DNA from: Octopus vulgaris
Taxonomy: Eukaryota
Direction: 5' to 3'
DNA: 64,000 bases
Assembly: GCA_951406725.2 (NCBI GenBank)
Contig: OX597814.1
Coordinates: 68,696,001 to 68,760,000 of the forward strand
Shown here: piece after piece, positions 5,278 to 51,920 of the stretch
Layout: the number at the start of each line of letters is the position of its first letter
How positions within the stretch are numbered: the first letter of the stretch is position 1
Notes under the pieces: model-generated
The model's input: the letters and a program-made list of their open reading frames with translations, nothing else
Told to the model about the DNA's origin: nothing
The model's database searches: none
Translations under genes and position numbers: made by a program

Positions 5278-5358
<81 letters not shown>

Positions 5359-5481
5359 TTAATAAGGGTGAGAGAATTAGATACTAATTTAATAGTATAT
5401 TTATTCCACACCAAGTGGCCTAGTGCTACGAGAAACCTGGATTATTATAATATTTTATAACATATTATAATATTTTCACAA

Positions 5482-5530
5482 AATAAATATAAGAGAGTGG
5501 TCACTATATTGATCACTCTCTTATATTTAT

Positions 5531-5531
<1 letters not shown>
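5482..5531. repeat. Hairpin with 18-bp perfect stem plus wobble extension
   Basis: AATAAATATAAGAGAGTG-GTCACTATATTGAT-CACTCTCTTATATTTATT. Confidence 0.85.
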
Positions 5532-5660: not shown

Positions 5661-5663
<3 letters not shown>

Positions 5664-8600
5664 AATCAAGGAACGGCCATAATAGGCCATTCACCCACTA
5701 GAAATAACAGCCAAAGCTTCAACCGCAAAATAACATTAATTCCGCAAACCAGGAGAAAATTAAAAAAAACATTTACCCTGTAATTTCTTATACGATGCAC
5801 CGTTTCATCTATTGTTTAATGGTAAACTAACCTGATTAAATTAAATCAAGCCAATCTTCCATAGGCCCTTAGATTCGTCAGTAAGAAATAGCCAGATCGG
5901 AACAGATATTTTCACGAGGCACTTCTGTCCCTGCCTCGGCAATATCTGACCTAAAATTTTCAAATCATCGCACTCGCGCCAAATTTATCGGCAGCAAATA
6001 AATATAAGCCGCCGATTCCATTACGGAATTAACCAGAAAATTCATAATTAATCAATATAGGGTGGCAAAAAATTTTGTAGAATTTTTTTGCCACCAGCGG
6101 CCTAGTGGGAAAAAATTAAATAGTCATAGACCATTTATAAGTTCAACATCACAATCAAGGAACGGCCATAATAGGCCATTCACCCACTAGAAATAACAGC
6201 CAAAGCTTCAACCGCAAAATAACATTAATTCCGCAAACCAGGAGAAAATTAAAAAAACATTTACCCTGTAATTTCTTATACGATGCACCGTTTCATCTAT
6301 TGTTTAATGGTAAACTAACCTGATTAAATTAAATCAAGCCAATCTTCCATAGGCCCTTAGATTCGTCAGTAAGAAATAGCCAGATCGGAACAGATATTTT
6401 CACGAGGCACTTCTGTCCCTGCCTCGGCAATATCTGACCTAAACTTTTCAAATCATCGCACTCGCGCCAAATTTATCGGCAGCAAATAAATATAAGCCGC
6501 CGATTCCATTACGGAATTAACCAGAAAATTCATAATTAATCAATATAGGGTGGCAAAAAATTTTGTAGAATTTTTTTGCCACCAGCGGCCTAGTGGGAAA
6601 AAATTAAATAGTCATAGACCATTTATAAGTTCAACATCACAATCAAGGAACGGCCATAATAGGCCATTCACCCACTAGAAATAACAGCCAAAGCTTCAAC
6701 CGCAAAATAACATTAATTCCGCAAACCAGGAGAAAATTAAAAAAACATTTACCCTGTAATTTCTTATACGATGCACCGTTTCATCTATTGTTTAATGGTA
6801 AACTAACCTGATTAAATTAAATCAAGCCAATCTTCCATAGGCCCTTAGATTCGTCAGTAAGAAATAGCCAGATCGGAACAGATATTTTCACGAGGCACTT
6901 CTGTCCCTGCCTCGGCAATATCTGACCTAAAATTTTCAAATCATCGCACTCGCGCCAAATTTATCGGCAGCAAATAAATATAAGCCGCCGATTCCATTAC
7001 GGAATTAACCAGAAAATTCATAATTAATCAATATAGGGTGGCAAAAAATTTTGTAGAATTTTTTTGCCACCAGCGGCCTAGTGGGAAAAAATTAAATAGT
7101 CATAGACCATTTATAAGTTCAACATCACAATCAAGGAACGGCCATAATAGGCCATTCACCCACTAGAAATAACAGCCAAAGCTTCAACCGCAAAATAACA
7201 TTAATTCCGCAAACCAGGAGAAAATTAAAAAAACATTTACCCTGTAATTTCTTATACGATGCACCGTTTCATCTATTGTTTAATGGTAAACTAACCTGAT
7301 TAAATTAAATCAAGCCAATCTTCCATAGGCCCTTAGATTCGTCAGTAAGAAATAGCCAGATCGGAACAGATATTTTCACGAGGCACTTCTGTCCCTGCCT
7401 CGGCAATATCTGACCTAAAATTTTCAAATCATCGCACTCGCGCCAAATTTATCGGCAGCAAATAAATATAAGCCGCCGATTCCATTACGGAATTAACCAG
7501 AAAATTCATAATTAATCAATATAGGGTGGCAAAAAATTTTGTAGAATTTTTTTGCCACCAGCGGCCTAGTGGGAAAAAATTAAATAGTCATAGACCATTT
7601 ATAAGTTCAACATCACAATCAAGGAACGGCCATAATAGGCCATTCACCCACTAGAAATAACAGCCAAAGCTTCAACCGCAAAATAACATTAATTCCGCAA
7701 ACCAGGAGAAAATTAAAAAAACATTTACCCTGTAATTTCTTATACGATGCACCGTTTCATCTATTGTTTAATGGTAAACTAACCTGATTAAATTAAATCA
7801 AGCCAATCTTCCATAGGCCCTTAGATTCGTCAGTAAGAAATAGCCAGATCGGAACAGATATTTTCACGAGGCACTTCTGTCCCTGCCTCGGCAATATCTG
7901 ACCTAAACTTTTCAAATCATCGCACTCGCGCCAAATTTATCGGCAGCAAATAAATATAAGCCGCCGATTCCATTACGGAATTAACCAGAAAATTCATAAT
8001 TAATCAATATAGGGTGGCAAAAAATTTTGTAGAATTTTTTTGCCACCAGCGGCCTAGTGGGAAAAAATTAAATAGTCATAGACCATTTATAAGTTCAACA
8101 TCACAATCAAGGAACGGCCATAATAGGCCATTCACCCACTAGAAATAACAGCCAAAGCTTCAACCGCAAAATAACATTAATTCCGCAAACCAGGAGAAAA
8201 TTAAAAAAACATTTACCCTGTAATTTCTTATACGATGCACCGTTTCATCTATTGTTTAATGGTAAACTAACCTGATTAAATTAAATCAAGCCAATCTTCC
8301 ATAGGCCCTTAGATTCGTCAGTAAGAAATAGCCAGATCGGAACAGATATTTTCACGAGGCACTTCTGTCCCTGCCTCGGCAATATCTGACCTAAAATTTT
8401 CAAATCATCGCACTCGCGCCAAATTTATCGGCAGCAAATAAATATAAGCCGCCGATTCCATTACGGAATTAACCAGAAAATTCATAATTAATCAATATAG
8501 GGTGGCAAAAAATTTTGTAGAATTTTTTTGCCACCAGCGGCCTAGTGGGAAAAAATTAAATAGTCATAGACCATTTATAAGTTCAACATCACAATCAAGG

Positions 8601-9181
8601 AACGGCCATAATAGGCCATTCACCCACTAGAAATAACAGCCAAAGCTTCAACCGCAAAATAACATTAATTCCGCAAACCAGGAGAAAATTAAAAAAACAT
8701 TTACCCTGTAATTTCTTATACGATGCACCGTTTCATCTATTGTTTAATGGTAAACTAACCTGATTAAATTAAATCAAGCCAATCTTCCATAGGCCCTTAG
8801 ATTCGTCAGTAAGAAATAGCCAGATCGGAACAGATATTTTCACGAGGCACTTCTGTCCCTGCCTCGGCAATATCTGACCTAAAATTTTCAAATCATCGCA
8901 CTCGCGCCAAATTTATCGGCAGCAAATAAATATAAGCCGCCGATTCCATTACGGAATTAACCAGAAAATTCATAATTAATCAATATAGGGTGGCAAAAAA
9001 TTTTGTAGAATTTTTTTGCCACCAGCGGCCTAGTGGGAAAAAATTAAATAGTCATAGACCATTTATAAGTTCAACATCACAATCAAGGAACGGCCATAAT
9101 AGGCCATTCACCCACTAGAAATAACAGCCAAAGCTTCAACCGCAAAATAACATTAATTCCGCAAACCAGGAGAAAATTAAA
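5661..9181 (-). mobile_element. Tandem array of 7 full plus 1 partial 488-bp hammerhead-bearing units (retrozyme-like / PLE pLTR array)
   Basis: Unit starts (CACAATCAAGG) at 5661, 6150, 6638, 7126, 7614, 8102, 8590 and 9078. Units are nearly identical, non-coding and flanked by (TA)n on both sides. Each full unit has one complete hammerhead. Confidence 0.9.
5783..5889 (-). ncRNA. Type I hammerhead ribozyme (unit 1; identical copies at 6271-6377, 6759-6865, 7247-7353, 7735-7841, 8223-8329, 8711-8817)
   Basis: Minus RNA: stem I AUUUCUUA, core CUGACGA, stem II AUCUA...UAGAU with nested helices, GAAA, stem III ACGGUGCAUCGU, triplet GUA, stem I' UAAGAAAU. All conserved core nucleotides are present. 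Predicted cleavage is between 5791 and 5790. Confidence 0.9.
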
Positions 9182-9386
9182 ATATATATATATATATATA
9201 TTTCGTTTTGGGATTTGGTTTGCAAGATTCTTTATGTGAGTTCGCTTGTTGAAGCATATTCTGTTGTGTCTGGGGAGAGTCATTCTCTTTTAGTGCCTTA
9301 TAATTTAACACACTCACCGGTAAAATTTCCATTTATTTCTTTTTTTATTTTTCTAAAAATGTTCGTTACGTCTTGCAATCTTTTCA

Positions 9387-9498
9387 ATGTATGTATGTAT
9401 GTATGTATGTATGTATGTATGTATGTATGTATGTATGTATGTATGTATGTATGTATGTATGTATGTATGTATGTATGTATGTATGTATGTATGTATGT
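9387..9498. repeat. (TGTA)n microsatellite
   Basis: Directly visible. Confidence 0.95.
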
Positions 9499-10776
9499 CT
9501 TCTACTCGGGATGTGACATGTAAAATAATTATGATTAAACTTTTATCAAATTGCTTATACAAGAGGATGAAATTAATGCTAATTTTCAAAAGAAAACTAT
9601 TTATTGTTTTATTTCTTATTTGTATATTTTCAATACATACGTAATTTTTCGTATTTTTATCAGCATTATCGCAATCTACTTCATCGACAACTTATCTTTG
9701 CGAGTTTTTATCGGTCATTCTGTAACATTTTGTTACTCATTGCTTGTCACAATGCTTAGTATTTTAACTCTCTGCGTCTCCTCTCTTGTTTGTCTTATAT
9801 GTTGTAAAGTGTGACTGAGAAATCAATCAACCAGCATTTATAGCGGTTATTATGCATATGTGTGTGTGCACGGACGTGTGACTGTGTATGTATTTATATA
9901 TAAATGTATAAGAGTATGTATATGTATAGATATGCGTCTGTGTGTGCATGTACGAGCATATATGCTTGAGTATGTGTGTTTTGCGTACAATATTCAATAA
10001 CGTTTATCGAATAATTATACTACAAAATTCATAGCTGCTATTCTTCTGATATCAATACTAATATTGTTAGGGCCTCAATGTACACAATCTCTTCAATTTG
10101 ACTAAACATATCAATAGACTCAAGTAATTGATCTTGTGTCCCAGGAAATGTAAATGGTATTCCAGGGAATTGCTATTCTTAGTCTTTTTTATGCGAAATA
10201 CTTTATTCATTCTTTTTGTTTCTAGTTTCTTGTTATTTTGCAATACAGATATTGATTTTATCATATCGGTAAAATCAATATATATCCTATTTTTAAAAGG
10301 TAATATCTTGTACATCTACACTGACAAACGTACGCTAGCATGCCTAGCAGACTAAACGATACAATACTAAAGTCAACATATTTAATAATCTGACCATGAG
10401 ACAAAATACTTCTGTATCAGGGCACATATACGTGTGTGTGTGTGCGTGTGTGAGTGTGTGTGTGCGTGCGCAGATACATCACCTACTTAAATTTTCAGCA
10501 GAGAAATTTGATGTTACTCCTGAAACATTTATGGTGTCACTATTTCAGTGAGAAAATATATTTTGAAATAGGGTCTCTGTACACGCACGCCTGTATGTGT
10601 GTGGGCTACACATACGCAACACCAAGTACGCGTGCGTGCACCCACACATACATGTTACCGTAATGTCAATGCCAAGCAGTGTTTAGGCATAAGAGAACTT
10701 TAGGTTAGTTAAAATATATTTATGACATATTTCAACTGCTAAAAGGCAAATTTCAGCAGTTACTGCGGATGAAATA

Positions 10777-12067
10777 CGAGGGGCGTTCAATAAGTAATGC
10801 CCCTGACCCACTTCCTATAGCAGTAGAGCAACGAAACTTGGCACAGTTATTAGTCTTTTTCTACATAGGAACCACCCAGAGTTATGCATTTCTCCCATTG
10901 TTTGATGCAGCTCTGGAGACCGTTTTTGTAGAAAACCCCAGCTTGGTCCTCCAACCTCAACGTGACTTCAGAAATCAAGGCTGCATCATCTGGGAAACGC
11001 TTTCCTTTCAAAAACAACTTCTTGACTGGGAAGAGGTGAAAATCAGAGGGTGCAAGGTCAGGAAAGTAGGGGGATGGGGGAGGAGTTCATAGTCATACGC
11101 CTGTGCTTCTGATCTGGCGACAAGCGAGTTGTGGACCGGAGCGTTTTCCTGCAGGAGGAGGATGTCTTTGCTGATCTTGCCCCGCCTCTTGATTTTGATA
11201 ACTTCTCTTAATTTCCTCAAAAGTGAAGCATAATAGGCTCCTGCAATTGTGGTACCCTTTGCCAGGAAATCTGTCATCACTACTCCGTCCTGGTCCCAGA
11301 AGACTGTGAGCATGACTTTGCCAGCGGAGGGCTGCACCCTTGCCTTCTTTGGAGGGGGTGAGTCACGGTGCTTCCACTGCATTGACTGGGCTTTGGTCTC
11401 TGGATCATCGTGATGGACCCAGGTTTCATCCTGTGTAATCAGTCTTTTGAAAAATTTTGATTCATCTTCTTGGCACATCTCCAAATTCACCCTCGAGCAC
11501 TCGACGCGTTCTTGCTTCTGGAAAGGCGTGAGCAACCTGGGAATACATCTGGCAGACACCTTTTGCATATGCAAATGGTCATGAATGATAGTTTCCACAG
11601 ACCCGGTACTAATCTTGACCTCATGGGCTATTTGGCGAATAATTATGCGTCGATCTTCCAAAATGGCAGCTTCAACTTGACGGACAGATGCCTCATCAAT
11701 GGCAGAAGGGGCGACCAGATCTGGGAGATGTTTCTACAGAGTTCCGACCATGTTTGAATTCACGATGCCAGCGTTTTACAAGGTCATATGATGGGGCATC
11801 ATCACCATAAGTTACTTTCATTTCATCAAAAGTCTCCCGTGGTGTGCGTCCTTTCAAATACAAAAACCGGATCACTGCTCGACACTCAACAGGCTCCATT
11901 TCACACTTGACTCGGTTCAAACACCTGTAAATCAGAAACCACAATTTGTTCAGAGCTGTAATTTGCCACTTACTCTATAGAGATAGAAATGATTGCACAT
12001 GCAAAATTTCAGCTAGATCCAACAAACTGCAAGTGGGTCAGAGGCATTACTTATTGAACGTCCCTCG
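10777..12067 (-). mobile_element. Full-length mariner (DD34D) element with frameshifted transposase
   Basis: TIRs CGAGGGGCGTTCAATAAGTAATGCCCCTGACCCACTT / AAGTGGGTCAGAGGCATTACTTATTGAACGTCCCTCG. TA dinucleotide on both sides; length 1291 bp. Confidence 0.93.
10850..11899 (-). pseudogene. Mariner transposase pseudogene
   Basis: MEPVECRAVIRF...RSGRP, then CIPRLL, TQDETW and HPP(fs)SPDLAPSDF motifs. Frameshifts near 11700 and 11070. Confidence 0.9.
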
Positions 12068-12803
12068 TATCTCCTTTATGTTAAAACGGTGGTAAAACGC
12101 CATATCTGTCCAGTGTCGCCACCTGTCAGATTCCCAAACATGGATGTTTCTAGCTCTTTAGCTGTTATCAATGAAAAATACCTAAGAGAGGCAGCTCCAT
12201 ATTTTTAACTAAAATACGGTCAACAACACTGACTTATTTGCGTCAGTAGACAGCTGAGGTCAAGGAAATTATCAAAATATCAGCGCCAAGCAGTGTTTAG
12301 GCATAAGGGAACTTTAGATTAGTTAAAATATATTTGTGACATACATCAAATACTGAAAGGCAAATTCACTGCAGTTACCGAGAACAATTCTCTACTATGG
12401 TAAAAATGTGTAAAAACACCTCTTTCTTTATAGCTGACAGTGGACACTAGGAGGTCCATTACCTTTCCCCCTCATTATCAAACACACTAACCCCTATTAA
12501 GGCTATAATATCTGAAATATAGTCCTGCTTTATGTGTCGTAGTGTTGTTCCCCATCAATTAAACCACTTGAAAGTACATTGCTTTGGTGAAGCTCCTTCT
12601 GCGGCAAGGCCCAGTTGTAGGATCACTAAATATGTATGTGCCGAGGATTCTGAACTATTTTAAATGTAAAACTCATGTATTCATCTGAAGAAAATGGTAT
12701 TTTATAATATAATAATGTACTCATTAATCAACCTGTCCATCAGTTGTTACTTATGCATGCATACATGAGTGTGTGTGTGTGTGTGTGTGTGTGTGCATGC
12801 CTG

Positions 12804-12858
<55 letters not shown>

Positions 12859-12904
12859 GCATATGCACACAGACACACACCCACACACATATATGCATAT
12901 ATTT

Positions 12905-14600
12905 TTTACATAAAGTTAAATATATAACATAGAGTGGTCATAGTTTTGCATCCATAAAGTGCTTAGCTTTATAGACGACTTGTTAGACTCCAATAGCCGC
13001 GGGCATATAACCTCACTTCAAACTGGAGGTAGAAAACTGTTATGATCAGCTAATCTGTAAGTAAAAGAATAATATGCAATAGCTGACCATCAAAAGAATA
13101 ATATGCAATAGCTGACCAATAGCTGACCATCAATAGCTGACCATATCGCCCTTACACCTGTTCGGTAAGCAAATCTTATGGGCTTAAAGGGCGAACGAGG
13201 TATCTCCGCCCTTAGGTTGGTTCCTGTCCTCAAGTAATCTTTACTGACCTAATCAACGAACGGAGAATTCCACACCTGCAGGAGGTGGCATTTGAAATGG
13301 AGGCAGGGGTTAGGACCTCGTATCTTAAGTTTAAGAGAGACCTGAATCCAACAAGTCTTTAAGAATCCTTGCCCGCTCTGCTATGCAAAGCTTGCATCGT
13401 CCGCTCCCGTTGGTATTGGACCCCGGCTTCTCTACAATCCTCCATTTAATTTCGTATGGAGTTTTTTCATCTTTAAGGCATCACACGTAGCTGGCCAAAG
13501 ATGTGATGTAACGTCTTTCCAGAACCCTTAACGAAGATCTGTGGTTGTACAGGTACCCTTTAAAGGCAACTACGGCCAACCTGATGTATCTCTGAATTTG
13601 AGTGCTGGTTGTGTTCTTAACTCTGGTTTATCTTCCGTTGGTTCTGGGCCTGATGTTGTTGCTGCCGCTATTTTTACTGGAGCTGTCATCGTTTATTACA
13701 GGGCATGGGTCGAGCTGTTGCCGTTTCAGTAGTCATCCCTGGCTGTAGCGTTTTGATGCTGCTGTTATTTCCGATAGTGCTGTGGCTATTGTCGCTGTTA
13801 ATTCTGAGCGTAGGAGTGGTAGCTCCGCTGGTGCTGCAGGTGCTGGTACGGCCATCATCTCCGGCCATAGCGCTGGTGCTGGTGCTGCGGTCGTTGTTGT
13901 CGGTGCTGGTGTTTCTGCCGTTTAAAGCTGTTGCTGCCGTCTCCGCTGTTGCCATTGTTGTCGTCGATGTTGTTGGATGAGCTGCTGCTGCTATTACTCT
14001 GATTCTTAGGGCTGGATACTACCACATCCTCATATGCGACTCCCTCAGTCTCGCACTCCCCCATCCTACTGGCCAGTTATTTTACTCTCTGCATGAGCAA
14101 CTGGCCTCTGCTCTCGTTTTATGGATGTTTGCCAATATTCTTTTCATGTTGGGTTCCTGTTGAACAAACGTCTGTACCTGTGTGTCTGCGTGAAGTGCTT
14201 GTCTACCAACCTTAGTTTTAAAGTTGAATGAGAAGAGTGGGGCAAACCAAACGATGTTCCAGGAGCTCTTTCTTTCGCGGGTTCCGAGGTCCGGCATATA
14301 GGAAATGCGTCCTTAAAACCATTGGACGCCAGAGCCTCGTTGTAATAGGGGGCTGCAGTGTCGAAAATTTCTTGATTCGATAACATGTTCGAGATTCTCT
14401 TGCTGACAGCTTTCACTAGGTTCCTAAACACGATAGGCAAGTAGCAGTAGGCTGCATTGATGTAGGGCAACCTCTTGTTTGGTTTGTGGTAGAGATTGTA
14501 CGAACGGGAGCCAAAGTCTAGCGGCCACTGGAGTGTGATGAGTCGTCTATAAAGCTAAGTGCTTTATGGATGTGACTGGACTTATATTTAACTTCATGTA
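12905..14600 (-). mobile_element. Penelope-like element 3' relic (RT thumb + GIY-YIG) bracketed by inverted pLTR fragments
   Basis: YINAA..KRISNMLSNQEIFDTAAPYYNEAL, WNIVWFAPLFS, CSCR, GECETEGVAY, YIR..FKGYLYNH, CKLCIAERARILK. The segments at 12905-13002 and 14520-14600 are inverted copies of each other. Confidence 0.85.
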
Positions 14601-14621
14601 AATACATTACTGATCCGCTGA

Positions 14622-14673
<52 letters not shown>

Positions 14674-14704
14674 CATGTGTATCCTTGGACCTTTCCTTTT
14701 CTAT

Positions 14705-14739
14705 GTTTCTGACGAAGAGCTCCGCCCGAAACGTTAAAT
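14705..14739 (+). ncRNA. Minimal type I hammerhead in a short PLE-type repeat
   Basis: GUUU-CUGACGA-A-GAGC-UCC-GCCC-GAAA-CG-UU-AAAU, with palindromic AACGUU. A decayed sibling (CTGATGAAGAGCTCCCTCGAAT) lies at 27824 in homologous flanks. Confidence 0.7.
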
Positions 14740-14839
14740 CCTCCTCCTTTCTTTCCTTTCCTGAGCGTCCAATAATACTATACTTGTTCCACGTCCTCGC
14801 GTTGTTGTGTTTTCTCTTTGTTCATGTTTGGATTAACTA

Positions 14840-14903
<64 letters not shown>

Positions 14904-15402
14904 ATATGTAAGTATATGTATATTTTATCTGGGGTTTGTTTGTCCCACCTTATACTTGTGTGTCTTTGTGTCTGTGTGTGTGTATGTATACGTAAATGTA
15001 TGTATACATAAATAGCTTGTAACTATTATCGTGTCAGGTATCACTGACTCACCTACATGCAAGATTACGTAATTACTCGGTAATCAGCGGAAAAGTGAGC
15101 AGACTTTTAAGAATATGTACCACAATCTTCTCCGTATATCAAGCTTTAGCCAGTGTCGTGTTACAATAGCTGATATTTTGGGAGAAGACATGCTTGTTAG
15201 TGCATTCTTAGGATCTTATAGGATCCTAGGCGTTCCTAGCTACGGATTTGATAGCAGCTCGATGATGGTTTAAGCAACGATTAACGTAATGTAAATTTTC
15301 ATTTGGGTTATGACAGGGACGATAAAGGTCTCCATTAAAGTTTCATGAAACACCTAGGAAATTCACTAATCGATGGTTAATACTCACTGTAAAAGATATT
15401 TC

Positions 15403-15796
15403 TTTTACTTGCTTCAGACATTTGACTGCGGCCATGCTGTAGCACCGCCTTTAGTCGAACAAATCGCCCCCAGGACTTATTCTTTGTAAGCCTAATACTT
15501 ATTCTATAGGTGTCTTTTGCTGAACCGCTAAGTTACGAGACGTAAACACGCCAACATGAGTTGTCAAGCGATGGTAGGGGACAAACACAGACACACAAAT
15601 ACATACATACATACATACATACATGCATATATGTATGGACTTCTTTCAGTTCCCGTCTGCTAAATCCACTCACAAGGCTTTGGTCGGCCCGAGGCTATAG
15701 TGGAAGACACTTACCCAAAGTGCTACGCAGTGGGACTGAACCTGGAGCCATGTTGTTGGGAAACAAGATTCTTATCCCGCAGCCACTCCTGTGCCT
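15403..15796 (-). mobile_element. tRNA-derived SINE (major family in window)
   Basis: Head AGGCRCAGGAGTGGCTG..GGTTCAGTCCCACTGCG, internal microsatellite, tail ..GCAGTCAAATGWCTGAARCAAGTAAAA. Multiple copies in the window. Confidence 0.9.
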
Positions 15797-16135
15797 ATAT
15801 AGTCGAAATTCCTTTAAGAAATAATTAGCTTCTTTATACATCATACTGATTCTACGTTGCTACACATACGGAAAGAGATAGAACGTCATTCTTGGATAAA
15901 TCTCTCCTAGTGCAGAAAATCCACATTTAACCTAGACAGGAACAGATTATGAGATGTCTACACTGGATTACATTTATGTTTAAACGATTTAAAGAAGTAT
16001 AACTTAGTAATTATACACGTTAAAGTAATGATTGTGATAATGATATTTATGCAAATAATACTAATTAATACAGTTATAAGGCAGTGAGCTAGCCAAGATG
16101 TTAAGCCGTCGGACAAAATCCCGCTAAGTATTTGT

Positions 16136-16420
16136 AGGCGTAGGAGTGGCTGTGTAGTAAGTAGCTTGCTTACCAACCACATGGTTCCGGGTTCACTCCT
16201 ACTGCGTGGTACCTTGGGCAAGTGTCTTCTACTATAGCCTCGGGCTGACCAAAGCCTTGTGGGTGGATTTGGTAGACGGAAACTGAAAGAAGCCCGTCGT
16301 ATATATGTGTATATATATGTATGTGTGTGTATATGTTTGTGTGTCTGTGTTTGTCCCCCCAACATCGCTTAACAACCAATGCTGGTGTGTTTACAGCCAC
16401 GTAACTTAGTGGTTCAAAAA
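16136..16420 (+). mobile_element. tRNA-derived SINE, 3'-truncated at the gypsy relic
   Basis: Same family as 15403-15796. It interrupts another SINE head at about 16079-16135. Confidence 0.88.
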
Positions 16421-18861
16421 AACGGCCTCGACCGGGGAGATGTGGCTCCTCTCTGCTATGATCTTGATGGTGCAATGATGCCTCTCTTCAACCCCAATGT
16501 CACTTGGCTGGTATGCTGCCCTGAAGAAACGGCTAACATGCCACTTGTCGAGCATTTCCCCCAGCACCTCAATTAGCTCATCCACAGGGCCTCATTCTAG
16601 GAATATCTCATTTAGTATTCTTGTGATTTCCTCCGCTGTCCCTGTCTTCATCTCCCTCCATATGGCCAACCGCCCCGGTCCGCATTCGACAATCTAGAGG
16701 TATGAGCTCTGCTGGTAGTATGTCACGTCCACTACCAATCGTTTCCAGTTGTGTTCCACTGGAATGCTTCCCGCCTCATGTAGACTTGGAGCGAGTCAAT
16801 GGACTGGCACCTGTCGCAGCTTCCAACTACTCTTTGCACACTCTGCCTGGTCACGTCAGAGTCAACTTTCCTGGCTAGGAACAGGATCCCGTTCCTATAA
16901 GGATCCCTATACCTTACTAGCTGATAACTTCACAGTCTCTTAGCCACATGCAGCTGCAGGTATGTTGACTTCAAATCGACGATTGTGAAGGACCCTGTCA
17001 TCTGCCTCCACTCTCTCAAGGTTTCGCTGCAAATGTCCGTAGCTTTACCGCCCATATGGCACAATACGTGGTTGTTCAGCTCTCGGAAATCTAATGCTGG
17101 TCTGACTTTATGCCTCGTCGGCTGCACCACTGCCATCAGCGGTAGCACTCCACTCTCTACTTCCTCCTTCCAAGGGATCAGAATACCTTCTTTGATCCAC
17201 CGTTCCTCCTCTCCCTCGAACTCGCTTCTGGCATCTCCTTTCAGAGTATGCTGATAGCAGCCTACAACTTTTTTCAGTGTCGGAGGATCTCCCTTCCAGA
17301 GCCATTCCACTGTCCACTGCCGGCCATTGAACACATCCCGAAAGTCTTTATCTGTGATGGTGTTTGCAGCAAATTTTTCTTCACAGCTCTCACCACTCTC
17401 CTGTCGCGAACTCACAGCGCATAGCGGCCTCGCATCATCGAACGCTACACCGGCTTCATCGATTGTGACACCTCCCAACCGGACAATGGCGTCCATCCCC
17501 ATCACCACATTGACTCCGTCCACCACAGGGTCGATCACGATCGCACACAACCTCAGTCTTGATCCTTGTGCCACCATCTCCACGTCGCTAGTTCCTCTGC
17601 AGCCAACTTCCGTAACGTCAACAGCCCTTACACGACTCACTCCGCTCTATTCTTCCAGCACCTCTAGAGTCATTAGGCTTGTTGAGCAGCCCGTGTCCAC
17701 GATGGCTCGTGACATCTTTCCCTTCACCATGACATCTAATACTGGCAACGCCTCTATTCTTTCGACGGGACGACTACCGGCGAAGTAGTCTCCCTTACAC
17801 CGTTTCCTGAAACGCATTCGCTAGCGATGTGACCTATTTGTCTGCATCGATAGCAAATTACTCCAGGCCTGGGTTCCTTGCAGTCTCTCACCATGTGCGA
17901 ACCCTGACACCGAAAACACTGCCCTTTGAAGAGTCGCCACGTTCCTTGTTCGACCCCTCTCCACCGCTCTTTGTTTGAACTCCTTCGCGTTGTTGGAGAC
18001 TCTGCTAAATGTGTCGTCCTACAACACGAGACGATGGCTTGATTACTAATAATGAAAGTAATACTATTATATCTCCCATCGACATGGAGTGAGTATTCGG
18101 CAGCTTTTGCAGTTCGACTGACACGTGGTCAGGAAATCCTGTCACAAAGGCTAATTGAACTGTTTGTTCCAACGACTCATCCCTGTATCACACGAGGCTA
18201 GGCAATCTCCTGATTTCGTTGGCAAACACATCGATCTGTTAACCCGTCCACTTCACTTTCCCCAGTCGACCATATGCCATAAATTACCTTTTGTAAAAGT
18301 CTCCATCAGCCGGACTTCAATTATTTCTGCGCTTAACTGGTCCTTCTCTTCCATTTCCAGGTATAGTGCCAACGCCGATCCATCGAGGTACAATGGTATG
18401 AAACTCGATAGGTCATCTATACCTTGGAGTCTTGCCACGAACTTAATTTTCTGCAGCCAAGCGGTGACACCTCCCTCGCCGCAAAATGGCCTTACCGTTT
18501 CATTCGAAACACTGACCACACTCATCATTTTCTTTTTTTGAGCTGAAAAAGCTTGTGATGTGAAGGGGGAATAAAGACGGAAGTAAAGAGAAAATTGTGG
18601 TAGTCTTACCTATCGGTCCGGAAAACGGTCACTCTCAACGTCTAAGTGCTATGTCTCGATCTGCAAGATTCGCTCAACATCCACGTGCGCTGTCCGTGGC
18701 TGTACCGTCTAACACACCTGCCCTCATGCCCTGTCGCCATCAACTGACTGCTTGCGCCTCGCTGACTTCGCATGCCCACCGCGGTCCTTCCGGTGGGACC
18801 CCTAGGCTCCACTTCCGACAGAACATGCCCACTCCCTCACTTCCGGTCTTTCCCTACAACA
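16421..18861 (-). mobile_element. Ty3/gypsy LTR retrotransposon relic (putative 5' LTR, gag, protease, partial RT, partial integrase)
   Basis: Zinc knuckles CFRCQGSHMVRDC and CYRCRQIGHIASEC (17813-17918). Protease AIVDTGCS. RT VRPALDFRELN..DLKSTYLQL. Integrase-like residues at 16500-16720. Putative LTR TGTTGTAGGG..CACATCACA at about 18554-18861. Large internal deletion. Confidence 0.85.
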
Positions 18862-20334: not shown

Positions 20335-20410
<76 letters not shown>

Positions 20411-20659
20411 ATATGTACAATTACTCAATAGTCAAGATAAAACTGAGTTTCAGATACCGAAGTGGAAATCCACAGCACCATCTCTTCGGTTATCTGGCCA
20501 TCTGAAAAAAAACGCTTTGAAAAAATACCGTTATATAAAGGGAAATTACTGTGTTATATATATATATAGGGTGGAGAATTGACAAAAAACAAAAGACGAA
20601 GACAGGTGGTGTAGACAAGAAATAGATATATTAGTTTAACGCTCGGGAAGTAAAAATAT

Positions 20660-20788
<129 letters not shown>

Positions 20789-20889
20789 TAGATAGATAGA
20801 TAGATAGATAGATGATAGATAGATAGATAGATAGATATAGATATAGATATAGATATAGATATATATGTGTGTGTGTGTGTGTGTGTGTA

Positions 20890-21475
20890 GGTAGTAAATT
20901 TTTACAAATTTCACTACCAATGGCCTAGCATGTATAGAAAGTCAATAGACGACATATTATTCAATATAAAATAGTATACATTTAAACACAAAGAGAAATT
21001 ACCTATAACAGATAATTTCTACACGCTAGGACACAGTCAAAAGGACCGAAAACCACAAAATTTAAGCAATTTCAAAGGGAATGAAAAAATAAAACTTTTA
21101 CCTTGGTTTTTGGTTTTACCTTGTTTCGAAATTTTTTAGTAAATAAAATAATTTACTAGGCAAATTCTCATCAGTAACCGAGCCATACATAGCACGTGTC
21201 CTATCTTTATATGTTATAATTTTTTTTCAAATTATATGTTAGTTTGGATGGCTCGGTTGCTGATGAGAATTTTCCTAGTAAATTATTTTATTTATTAAAA
21301 AATTTCGAAACCTATAGGTATAACCGTAAAAACAAGGTAAAAGTTTAATATTTTTTCATTCCTTTTGAAATTGCTTAAATTTTGTGGTTTCGGTCGTTTT
21401 GACTGTTTCCTAGCGTGTACAAACTGCCTGTTATAGGTAATTTCTCTTTGTGTTTAAAAGTACACTATTTTATAT
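20890..21475. repeat. Long inverted repeat (about 230-bp arms) of hammerhead-bearing pLTR-like sequence
   Basis: 20963-21190 is an imperfect reverse complement of 21245-21475. Both arms carry CTGATGA..GAAAC. Confidence 0.88.
21254..21326 (+). ncRNA. Type I hammerhead ribozyme
   Basis: CGGUUG-CUGAUGA-GAAUUUU...AAAUUUC-GAAA-CCUAUAGG-UA-UAACCG. Stem III ACCUAUAGGU is palindromic; the triplet is GUA. Confidence 0.85.
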
Positions 21476-25182: not shown

Positions 25183-25529
25183 TCAATACATCTATTCATT
25201 GCTTTGAATGCACACCGATTAATGGACGATGTCAGGTCTAATAGTTCCTGAGAAAAAAGATTATTTGTAAGGGAGGTAAGTAGTTCTGGATTTGGTGCAA
25301 TTAGGTTAGATATAGAATTGTAATGCGAATGGTGTAAGGGATGTATGGGGCTTAGTGGTATTAATTGAAAGGTTAGTAGTGTTCTGTATTATGTTATGTG
25401 TTCATATTTGGTTGGGGAAGATATTTATTGATGAAAGTTGCCTCTTTATTCATTCTTTGTTGCATTGAGATGTTCTGTGAACATTAATAGAAGAGGAAAA
25501 TTAATAACTTCTAGCAATAGCTTTCTTTA

Positions 25530-26640
25530 TTTCGGATGTTCGGTGGATCTTAAAAGACGTCTTAACAATCCTTTTTCCTCTTTTAGGCTCAAACATAAGG
25601 CAGGTTGCACAACACTATCTAACAAAATTTGGGAACTAAAAACAAATAATATAGAATTCAACCTAAAATGGGATATAGTTAGAAGGGCGCAACCTTATAG
25701 AAATAGTAGGGATGGTTGTCAAATTTGTTCTATGGAAACTTATGAAATTTTAAAACATCAGAGTAATACAAATCTGTTGAATAATCGTCTGGAGTTGGGA
25801 TATCTTGTATGCATTGCACAACCCGAACGTTTAAATACTTTAAATAATAATTTTGTGAGTATTCCTATATTTTTCAAATTTTAATTCTTTATAATCAAAT
25901 AAGAAGACATATACTAGCTTTCAATTTAACATTCCTCGATGACTAAAAAAACTTCACTGCAAACTTGAAATTGGAATTTTTTTCTAAATTTAATCTAGCT
26001 TTAAAATTAATAAAGCTTTCCCCCAGTTAAAAAATACTATGCCTACTCATAATAATAAGTGATAGGTTTTATTTTTCTTCCCCTTTTTTTCTCTAAATTA
26101 CACTCTCTGTGAATGGGATTAGGACCATTTGACATTGACCTAGTTTCTCTCACCAAATAGCAGTAATTGGCATTTATTAGTGGCAATTGCTGTCTTCAAC
26201 ATGAATTCCTTTTATAGAGTTTCTGAAACCTCCTTTACCCCATTTCTACAATTAAAAAAATCATTATTGCTTCTAACCTTACGGCAGTTAGGAACAGCCA
26301 TATCTTAGTCAGTCAGTGGAAGGACTTCACTACCTCATATGTTCTTAAAATTTAAATCCACATCTTTGTCTGTATATCTACCTTCTCTATAATGTTGCCA
26401 CTTGATTTGAACATTTTTGTATTAATGGAAAAGCTCTATAATTGGCTGATGAGTACTCAGTATCTTAAATCTGTTGTAATACTTACAACATTTAATAAAA
26501 TGAGGTAGTACGAAACAATCGTACGAAATTACTGGAGTCATACTTGTTGCTTATTTTGATTATAATCACCCCGCGGATTTTTATGGATAACAGCATACAA
26601 AATTCTGGTGCATCTAAATTAAGTACCATATTCATTTGAA
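25530..26640 (+). mobile_element. Penelope-like GIY-YIG 3' relic plus pLTR with decayed hammerhead
   Basis: YFGCSVDLKRRLNNPFSSFR..TTLSNKIWELK..LKWDIV..CQICSMETYEIL..LLNNRLE. Hammerhead relic AATTGG-CTGATGA-GTAC...GTAC-GAAAC at about 26440-26530. Confidence 0.8.
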
Positions 26641-26657
26641 TCTAAATTTTTGCTGAA

Positions 26658-26702
<45 letters not shown>

Positions 26703-34439: not shown

Positions 34440-35870
34440 GGGAGCTATTCATTGCTACATGCCATTGTAAATTGAATATTGGAGTTTATATTGTTCAGTG
34501 TAGATTTGAAGTCCAGAAGTTTATCATAGGTTTCATTCCAGGGAATAAAACAATCGTCTAGGTACCTTTTCCAGTTGTCTCTTATATACTGGTGGAATTG
34601 GGGTCCAAATTTTTGGAGCGAAAATTCATATAGGGTAGATTCAAAGAAACTCATTATTAGATTCGCAAGGACAGGCTCTGCTTTTGTTCCCGTCGCAATA
34701 CCGCATTTTTAGCGGTAGTATGTTTCATCGAATAGTAAGTAATCGTTTTGTAGGATGAACTTCAGAGGTTCAATGGCCGCACAGATCAGACTTTCGTCAA
34801 GCACACTAAGGAAAACAAAACACCACATCTCACTTTAAATCACTCCAACAGATATCACCCCACAACCCCAGAAACAAAGAAGCACACAACACAATTGTAC
34901 AAAACCTCCCCCTGCTCACTCAAGACCCGAAAAGGAACAACATTCTGAATACACATAAATTCCTATAATGCAAAAGATAACACAATTCATTTAAGAGACT
35001 CCTAACAAATGCCAAACAATACTCAACGCATATGATACCAACAGTTATAAAATGCGGACGACCTAATTGTGGTACATGCCCATACCTAACTGAAGGTTCG
35101 GAATTCACATTCCAGCAAGGAGAAAAAATTTCAATTAATATCCAACATCACTGTGCCTCTCAGAACTTAATTTATGTCCTAATCTGCTCAGGTTGTTACC
35201 ACAAATATGTAGACCAAACGAGCCTTACTTTGAAACTCAGAGTTACGTTGCATAAAGAACAGATTCGTTTTCCTCAATACAGGCAGTTAGCTCTGAGCAA
35301 ACATTGACAGGTGCGCAAAAAATAAAACACCGAATTTTCATATTTTTCCATTATATCAAAGCAAAGATTCAATGTCCTTACAAGAACGTCTAAACAAGGA
35401 AAACCTGTTCATACAAAAGTACAGACCACACCTTAATACACAAACTTGACCACCCTACATATTCCTATTTCAAAATCAAATTTATTTACCACTATTCAAT
35501 AATATTGAGGAGGTAGTTGTTCCCCTCGTCATCTATTGCCTCTCTTTATCCACTCTCTCCATTCATTCTTACTTTTCATGAAATCCAAAATGGTGTGATT
35601 CCTTTGTTTCAAAGAATGATTACTTTACGATGTCCCTTGAAAAGCTAGTTTAAATAGCGACAACTGGTTGGATATCACTACATTTTATGAGACTTTTACC
35701 ACCCATAAAATATGTATAGAGATATTTTTATAAAAAGATATTATAACCATGTGAAATGAAGGCATTTCTCTTCCCTTTTTTATATGTTTTACACATATTT
35801 TTACTTCATAACTTGGCCACGTCGTGTATACTGATTCTCCAGCATTTTTACTCCTTTATGTATGTATGTA
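34440..35870. mobile_element. Penelope-like relic with inverted RT segment (minus) joined to GIY-YIG segment (plus)
   Basis: Minus 34445-34760: GIATGTK..ANL, WKRYLDDCF, NIQFT. Plus 35030-35450: CGRPNCGTC, NLIYVLICSGCYHKYVDQT. Confidence 0.85.
35629..35676 (+). ncRNA. Hammerhead-like motif with variant or decayed core
   Basis: GAUGUCC-CUUGAAAA-GCUA(GUUUAAA)UAGC-GACAA-CUG-GUU-GGAUAUC, downstream of the PLE GIY-YIG. Confidence 0.45.
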
Positions 35871-50365: not shown

Positions 50366-50421
<56 letters not shown>

Positions 50422-50578
50422 TGAGAAAGTTGGTGTGTGAAAGCACGTTGCTGGATGTATAAAAAATAGAAGAGTGAAAAAAACTACAGAAGGCTTGTTT
50501 TATAAGGTTAAAGGATATATTTAAGTTGTTATGTTAGAAAAATGTCATAAAAGTTTGTGTATAGTAACATAGTTTTGG

Positions 50579-50617
50579 GAGAAATAACCGGTTTCGTGTA
50601 AACTTTTCAAATTTCTC
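50579..50617 (-). ncRNA. Minimal hammerhead-like motif with variant core
   Basis: GAGAAAU-UUGAAAA-GU(UUAC)AC-GAAA-CCGG-UU-AUUUCUC. Confidence 0.55.
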
Positions 50618-51474
50618 AAATTTCTTTACCTACATCGTGTCATGTCTTCGTTATGAAATGCAAAGAAGAGTTCCAGGGGGGGGGAGTAATCAGGGATTTC
50701 TTCCGGTATAAGGGAGATAATCGCTTTATATTTTTTTCTTTTTTCAATGAGATGAGTTTCTCTGTATAAGAATGTTAGGATGGTTAAGTTTAGGCTTATA
50801 TTTTTCAATGAAGAATGTTTTCTTTTTTAATCTAATTTGTGTTGGTGTTCCAATAGCCCATTGATAGAATGGAAAGATTAAAAATTGTGGTTGTAGTTGC
50901 TTAGCGCATTTCTCAATATGCTCACTAAAGGGTATCCTTCTGTATTCTGGGAATGCAATCTGTTGTCGATGCAGTGTGCATCTGCATCTGAGTGATAATC
51001 CCGTGGACCCTACGTAGTTTTGGTGGCAGCCCGAGCATCTTATGACATAAATTATGTTTTCAGAAGCACAAGTAAAATTAGATTTGATTTTGAATTTTTG
51101 TCCCTCTTTGAAAAAGAAATTCTGATCCTTCTAGAAGGTTTGAGCATGTTGCGCAGTTTGGTCTACCACATGTTTTTAACTTTTGCATCCGTAATTTCAG
51201 AAAACAATTTTGCCTTTGTGAGAATCTTTTTTAGTGATTTAGGTTGTTTGTAGCTTTTAATGATTTTATGTATGTTTAGAATTTCCTTTAATTTAGGGTC
51301 CTTATGAAGTATTGGTAAATTCTGGGTGATGATGGTGAAGGCTCCTTTGCTCCTGGGTTTGTATGTGGATACGTAAGGCAGTATTTTCGGGGAAGGTGTG
51401 TTGTTGTGTTTAACTTTCCTCAAAGTTTCTATGTCGATTTCTGTTGCACGTCTGATCCCATCCTATATGAGTTG

Positions 51475-51602
51475 AACTGTTTTTGAGTTCTTGTAGCCTG
51501 AACTGTTTTTGAGTTCTTGTAGCCTAAACTTTTTGAGTTCTTGTAGCCTAAAATTTTGAGTTCTTGTAGCCTGAACTGTTTTTGAGTTCTTTTAGCCTAA
51601 AA
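51475..51602. repeat. Minisatellite of about 25 bp, five copies, inside the PLE ORF
   Basis: (GAACTG)TTTTTGAGTTCTTGTAGCCT repeats. Confidence 0.9.
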
Positions 51603-51876
51603 TTCCTGGTATTTTGTTCTGACACTATTGTGCATATCCTTCTTGCAAGGTTGAAAGGGATGTTTGTTTTAGTGTGTCTTGGGTGGCATGAATAAAAAAG
51701 TAGGTATTGTTTGGCGTCTGTGATTTTGTAAAATATGTCTGTTTCTATTCTTAGGTTAATTTTTTTATACAGTATATCTAAGAATGGAAGCTCCTTTTGA
51801 TTGTACTCCATTGTGAACTGTATATTTGGGCTGACGCTGTTCAATAGGTTTTTGAATTTTAGGAGTTTATCTGTGT

Positions 51877-51920
<44 letters not shown>

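Follow-up and report, generated by a model that had tools for sequence, protein, structure and literature searches.

A covarying RNA module with two junction sites in hammerhead retrozyme families of the Octopus vulgaris genome

Metazoan non-LTR retrozymes have already been described, together with a suspected link to Penelope-like elements (PLEs) (Cervera and de la Pena 2020, PMC7229834; Li, Clavereau and Pollet 2026, 10.64898/2026.07.22.740005). The way in which animal retrozymes are copied is a recognized gap in knowledge; suspicion falls on PLEs because of co-occurrence and pLTR likeness. According to a 2020 review, animal retrozymes carry no conserved motif that points to a helper (PMC7761336), and the more recent study argues from co-occurrence and pLTR homology, the words 'tail', 'stem' and 'hairpin' not occurring in its main text (10.64898/2026.07.22.740005). 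On the side of the PLEs, reverse transcription by a Poseidon protein begins at two internal sites that lie in a stem-loop downstream of the hammerhead, and the sequence between them corresponds to the genomic tail; both strands of AT-rich DNA are cut, and a dimeric form of the protein is predicted (Frangieh et al. 2024, PMC11167929). PLE insertions form tandem and inverted structures with a tail at one end only, and they target (TA)n tracts (Craig et al. 2021, PMC8557442). In the octopus, the main text of a repeat annotation mentions neither 'ribozyme' nor 'retrozyme' (PMC13282606).

Here, we describe an RNA module that is shared by hammerhead retrozyme families of Octopus vulgaris and that lies at the two places where their insertions join the host microsatellite. 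No description of this module was found in the main texts of the literature, and repeat consensus libraries could hold the families unnamed. The window that we analyzed is the whole 64,000-nt stretch at positions 68,696,001 to 68,760,000 of contig OX597814.1. A preliminary description of it had reported a terminal hairpin followed by GGCCTAG in three diverged hammerhead-associated families, and had proposed this as a signal by which a PLE reverse transcriptase (RT) and endonuclease recognizes non-autonomous ribozyme RNAs.

Retrozyme families in the window

All three motif sites and the array copies were found at the reported positions, all of them on the plus strand: GGCCTAG is present at 5417-5423, at 20922-20928 and in seven array units (6099 to 9027, period 488), each time preceded by a hairpin (5367-5412, 20890-20918 and, in the array, 6061-6095). 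At 5367, the stem pairs continuously over its first 4 bp only. The nine copies in the window compare with 2.5 expected, an excess that is inflated by the tandem arrangement of seven of them, and the case therefore rests on genome-wide counts. In this 2.8-Gb, microsatellite-rich genome, the loose motif ACCN{2,5}GGCCTAG matched 11,462 times, compared with 2,311 times for the reversed control, and the 14-mer ACCAGTGGCCTAGC matched 3,022 times, compared with 0 for its reversed control. Among 91 fetched places of the first 100 listed for the loose motif (nine with odd spacers were omitted), copies with the spacers AGT, AGC or AAGT had the hairpin in nearly all cases, plus a nearby simple repeat or tandem context, and those with other spacers were mostly chance matches within unrelated repeats.

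The three window families fit diverged, homologous, non-coding non-LTR retrozymes. F1 forms the array, which occupies 5661-9182 on the minus strand with 7.2 near-identical units of 488 bp. A type I hammerhead-like motif is present on the minus strand in 7/7 full units, one per unit (at 6271-6377 with CUGACGA / GAAAC / GUA, an 8-bp stem I and a long stem II); its fold z-score is -3.5, although the canonical core is absent from the MFE structure. The array contains no ORF of 100 aa. The copy at 5367 belongs to F3, a 534-bp tandem family with the hammerhead on the same strand in full units elsewhere (L094/L095), and the copy at 20890 belongs to F0, with units of ~470-480 bp that also form tandems. 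The hammerhead association had been claimed for all three sites and holds for all three families; the F3 copy in the window is itself too short to hold the ribozyme, and the evidence for its family comes from the 534-bp units elsewhere. Hammerhead cores were also present in F0, F2, F6 and F7. All hammerheads were called by pattern, from the core sequence plus stems I-III; Rfam returned no hammerhead match and no family matching the module; its matches were all of microRNA type, scored below the gathering threshold and were located on simple or inverted repeats.

The motif is indeed shared between the families, which are related by descent, as indicated by alignment z-scores of 9.2 (F1-F0), 6.7 (F1-F3), 3.4 (F3-F0) and 19 (F3-F6), so that the sharing reflects descent plus selection. 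Clustering of 87 distinct cores gave 21 groups, several of them truncated or chimeric singletons, and ten or more subfamilies in two groups is a fair count. Copies of F1 and F3 spread over many contigs are 99-100% identical over 181 nt, which indicates recent movement. F1 was present in four organisms, with no RNA data set among the listed sequencing runs that contain it, and the same site-B junction of F1 (sites A and B are defined below) occurred in seven contigs assembled from a sequencing run of another organism.

Like published metazoan non-LTR retrozymes, the families are built from AT-rich units that do not code for protein, contain a single type I hammerhead and follow one another in tandem as dimers to multimers, and they likewise co-occur with PLEs, by which mobilization has been proposed for metazoan retrozymes (PMC7229834, PMC7761336, 10.64898/2026.07.22.740005). 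The unit lengths of 473-535 nt (~470-535) are above the 170-400 nt of PMC7229834 and within the 51-972 nt of 10.64898/2026.07.22.740005. The earlier suggestion that non-autonomous hammerhead RNAs are the users of the motif is supported.

Some further features of the window were noted. Array units 2 and 5 share one substitution (6444, 7908), unit 1 has an extra A (at about 5762) and the others are identical, a pattern that could be due to sequencing noise or to a period of three units, produced by a trimer template or by duplication of a block. Toward their 5' side, the units contain a GCGC-rich box (5961-5970, with matching places in F0, F2, F3 and F7) that is conserved amid AT-rich sequence and is a possible promoter or protein site. 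PLE fragments of four different families, ending in or near simple repeats, lie at 12900-14620 (minus strand), 25435-26660 (plus), 34981-35850 (plus) and 50420-51880 (minus), the one at 25435 with a canonical hammerhead at 26446. Short PLE-type 3' pieces are present at 14623-14750 and 20568-20655; one of them has a minimal hammerhead, and the other matches a family (L205) whose other copies carry a minimal hammerhead core. Unrelated PLE-type RNA ends at 50420, 20568, 6060 and 20889 have ACC(C) and then UAUA as their last bases, a hint of a common preference at the start site. A 3' piece of a relative of a young 717-aa Hydra-type PLE lies at 20406-20560 (minus strand), 330 nt from the insertion at 20890. 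Broken reading frames with zinc-knuckle-like and RT-like stretches at 16930-18609 (minus strand) are probably an old LTR retrotransposon.

Fold and covariation of the module

Read on the hammerhead strand, the reported motif is part of a module of ~150 nt with a GC content of 0.30-0.37, which starts about 90-110 nt downstream of the hammerhead cleavage site and consists, in this order, of the P1 5' arm (CUAG-N4), P2, an AU linker, a small P4, the P1 3' arm (N4-CUAG), GCCRCU, P3 (GGU...ACC) and an AU tail. The signal originally described as hairpin plus 7-mer is real, but it is only a third of this three-helix module with its two junction sites, namely site A, 0-23 nt 3' of P3, and site B, about 5-25 nt 3' of P2. 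GGCCTAG is the reverse complement of a P1 arm plus linker, with CTAG as the helix arm and GCCRCU alone as the single-stranded part. In the F1 unit, all on the minus strand, P2 (6160-6181) and the P1 5' arm (6183-6190) occupy 6160-6190; the loop inside P1 (6110-6159) contains P4 (6118-6136) and the AU linker with site B (6142-6150 in unit register); the single-stranded GCCGCU and the P1 3' arm (6102-6109) follow at 6096-6109; and P3 is located at 6061-6095, with site A 10-23 nt beyond it in other copies. The F3 copy has its P3 hairpin at 5367-5412, then the linker and the P1 3' arm at 5420-5427 (5367-5427, minus strand).

P1 is an 8-bp helix whose 3' CUAG arm pairs 75-105 nt upstream, thereby enclosing P2. 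In total, 98.7% of 152 P1 cells were paired, and 30 cells, in 4/8 pairs, showed double changes; 0/500 shuffles (which ignore relatedness) scored as high, and slid controls were 13-45% paired. In the diverged copy L129, CUAG/CUAG is replaced by CCAG/CUGG. P2 folds in 15/15 representatives, weakly in three of them. P3 covaries in group A, where double changes were found at 4/8 pairs among 12 sequences, and the constant pairs in group B are the 3-4 basal ones only. The compensatory change from GGTGG/CCACC to GGTAG/CTACC, which had been read from the window, is thus real and recurrent, and stem covariation persists in the larger alignment of group A. An extension of P1 by pairing of GCC with an upstream GGC, drawn by MFE in some families, was rejected since the upstream triplet varies (GGC/GAC/AAC) without compensation.

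The hammerhead strand is weakly shown as the one that folds. On this strand, G-U outnumbered A-C by 41 to 8 cells in P1, but by only 12 to 8 when distinct events were counted (p=0.50) and by 3 to 0 among variants common to several copies, and fold z-scores favored the antisense strand in 4/7. We therefore weighed whether the conserved bases act as DNA, as an internal promoter or a PLE endonuclease site, with pairing secondary. The CTAG is a palindrome that hardly varies, the strand test did not reach significance, and tail DNA has been reported to be needed for cleavage by the D. virilis Penelope endonuclease, as cited in PMC11167929. However, the compensatory changes in P1 bridge 75-105 nt, which implies a single-stranded fold, and insertions enter (TA)n and not the motif, and we consider a role as a DNA site quite improbable.

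Insertion ends and the Penelope-type signature

Across 11 query sets, 173 of the 177 distinct RNA-3' ends at a microsatellite fell into two zones, 103 in A and 70 in B, with four elsewhere. With whole-unit queries, the F1 microsatellite junctions lay in A or B in 53/53 cases (29 of them 10-23 nt past P3, the other 24 between +81 and +89) and those of F3 in 37/37 (21 of them 7-18 nt past P3, the other 16 between +93 and +120); in each of the two families, three starts were without a microsatellite. In a held-out set (60 of 77 new places listed, two of which are one duplicated locus), a simple repeat lay within 30 nt in 42/60 motif copies, compared with 16% of random positions. Enrichment of the motif at element 3' junctions with the microsatellite, as had been predicted, is strong. 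The hairpin is one of two termini, and within tandem units it always has an internal position; the window array has its start at the second junction, site B (5661), and not at the hairpin, and its 5'-truncated end at 9182 runs into (TA)n.

Among 57 inverted insertions, 52 combined an A end with a B end, two were A+A, three were A+other and none was B+B, a combination that is impossible for most of these loci as they were found through the motif. When loci came from queries without the tail, A+B was still found in 17/19 and B+B in 0. A cruder script assigned the inverted partners in the held-out set to B in 16 cases and to A in one, with nine unassigned and 16 without a partner (of 42). Both inverted insertions in the window are A+B. 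The short fold-back F3 insertion (5354-5531, minus strand), with (TA)n on both sides and no hammerhead, joins the host at site A (5354), reverses direction within P2 and terminates at site B (about 5531). The F0 insertion at 20889-21470 consists of two arms of opposite orientation, with the A end on the left and the B end on the right: the left arm, with its RNA on the minus strand, starts at site A and contains P3 (20890-20918), the P1 arms (20925-20932 and 21022-21029), P2 (20994-21020) and a damaged hammerhead (21117-21180), and the right arm, with its RNA on the plus strand, contains a hammerhead (21254-21326) and runs to site B at 21470.

A hairpin followed by a CTRR terminus is also how Helitrons end on their 3' side. 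The arrangement of hairpin and CTAG is superficially alike, and many copies are inverted repeats, so that a Helitron-type 3' end or a MITE terminus could be imagined. This is contradicted by the junctions, since no copy examined ends at CTAG, homology extends beyond CTAG in all families and the host is joined on the side of the hairpin; moreover, the inverted copies have unequal ends (A versus B) and a variable turn point. We regard such a terminus as practically excluded.

The junctions instead show what is expected of PLEs. Retrozyme insertions prefer (TA)n targets, they occur as partial tandems with an inverted 5'-truncated copy (the 57 inverted insertions), and the tail is at one end only in 52/57, with a length of 75-125 nt compared with the published 30-40. 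Autonomous PLE families of this genome had two end zones in 3/4 tested, with tail lengths near 40, 65-70 and 100 nt, whereas only five ends, all at one place, were available for the fourth family; the inverted pairs of autonomous PLEs had one short and one long end in 8/8. One A end plus one B end per inverted insertion is the two-start-site signature of PLEs, so that PLE-type mobilization of the ribozyme RNAs, as anticipated, is well supported, and the retrozymes are very probably mobilized in PLE style.

Candidate helpers and the role of the module

We searched for an autonomous carrier of the module with four protein searches (best 150 of 7,000-17,000 candidates each) and 29 further stretches, which yielded several Neptune-type and Hydra-type families. 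In this survey of Neptune-type and Hydra-type families, neither the module nor the motif was found at the 3' end of any autonomous PLE family examined, and the expectation that the module would also be present in the pLTRs of intact PLEs failed for every PLE family examined. In a comparison of limited sensitivity, the motif was joined to a PLE ORF in 0/224 motif or family loci (these overlap, so that there are fewer insertions); in 8/224, a piece of a PLE ORF lay upstream on the same strand, always parted by a simple-repeat break. A covariance model built from group A only (R1) had no PLE pLTR match in 100 sources, a weak negative as the model missed even F3. Apparent ORF links at L284, L296, L325, L329 and L334, and model hits at L146, L129 and L223, were rejected as separate insertions or wrongly oriented. 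Homology of the F0 and F7 hammerhead regions to autonomous ones was likewise discarded, the high z-scores being likely artefacts of (TA)n in the query stretches; the F3 hammerhead region reached a z-score of only 4.9 against one Hydra-type copy.

Partnerships between SINEs and LINEs are usually argued from a shared 3' end. This argument is missing here, as no autonomous PLE with the module was found and the retrozymes had no 3' sequence in common with an autonomous family among the PLE families sampled. The survey being incomplete, the parent of the module may be unsampled or extinct. Furthermore, the 3' ends of autonomous PLE families differ widely and some are unstructured, so that the PLE RT may not need such a fold. 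Two young intact PLE ORFs were found in the same genome, one of 717 aa with the Hydra marks RWK, DKT and CxCX5C and a tail of 65-70 nt, and a Neptune-type one of 753 aa with RT and GIY-YIG. Both families have many identical ORFs (L211, L212, L218, L219, L138-L144) and are candidates for elements that still move today. The length of the tail and the long stems of the hammerheads are weak pointers to a PLE of the Hydra clade as the most likely helper.

We favor the interpretation that the module is a docking and initiation signal for a borrowed PLE RT-endonuclease, which we consider likely. Retrozyme units would be transcribed and then cut by their hammerheads, possibly with circularization. The PLE enzyme, for which a dimer is predicted, would attach to the module and introduce nicks into the two strands of a (TA)n tract. 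One cDNA would start at A and the other at B, one on each nicked strand, with 1-6 nt of AU microhomology setting the exact base; arrays would arise from copying round a tandem or circular RNA, and the inverted form, with its 75-125-nt tail on one side, would arise when the two cDNAs meet and join.

The main rival is that the PLE enzyme moves the elements while the module is kept for another RNA step, such as folding, ligation or stability of circular RNA, 3' processing or binding of a host protein, and that AU-rich stretches beside the helices set the starts. In favor of this reading, A and B are both embedded in AU-rich linkers that have short microhomology to (TA)n, and zone B of F3 extends broadly from +93 to +120; two sites are also used by autonomous PLEs, which do so without such a fold, and the module is in no PLE examined. 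However, other AU-rich stretches, for example hammerhead stem II, are unused, with 0/90 F1 and F3 junctions elsewhere, and in each of the 11 query sets A and B occupy constant places with respect to P2 and P3. We judge a role confined to another RNA step to be unlikely and retain the docking signal as the preferred reading.

A more specific and quite tentative version of the docking signal is that the module is a retrozyme-born, portable RNA signal without sequence kinship to the helper, in which P1 would bring P2 and P3 together so that each subunit of the PLE dimer initiates its own cDNA on a common RNA template, which may be circular, and each nicked strand obtains one of the two cDNAs. If this were true, Penelope-type RTs, which are the sister group of telomerase, would have in the module their first recognition element of defined structure, and grafting of the module on any RNA would make a template for (TA)n insertion.

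Compared with the retrozymes published so far, for which pLTR homology has been part of the argument (10.64898/2026.07.22.740005), the families presented here have a covarying module and a mapped A+B tail signature, and no pLTR homology to a helper was found. The families add genomic evidence of a mechanism, in which each of the two ends has its own start site, together with an RNA fold that covaries and is located at these sites. Among the PLEs, the Hydra- and Neptune-type elements (PMC8557442) resemble the retrozymes in their (TA)n target, partial tandems, inverted 5'-truncated copy and one-end tail, but they encode RT and GIY-YIG, and the CUAGGCC module was in none of those examined. The Chlamys elements, for example MRC1 (PMC8557442), are non-autonomous PLE passengers with head-to-tail copies as well, yet their 3' sequence is generally common with the autonomous family and they mostly lack hammerheads, whereas the retrozymes have hammerheads and no shared 3' end was detected in the PLE families sampled. 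The closest resemblance in the ends themselves is to the template RNA of Poseidon PAc (PMC11167929), which has two internal start sites downstream of the hammerhead, the tail between them, an AT-rich target and a start-site stem-loop in common with the retrozymes. PAc is autonomous, has a tail of 30-40 nt and a binding region known only from truncation, whereas the retrozyme RNA is non-coding, its tail measures 75-125 nt and its fold is defined by covariation across families. RNA recognition by a PLE RT is so far described from truncations of this one lizard element (PMC11167929); with a 150-nt module that has natural compensatory variants, and with young intact PLE ORFs in the same genome, such recognition is directly testable in the octopus.
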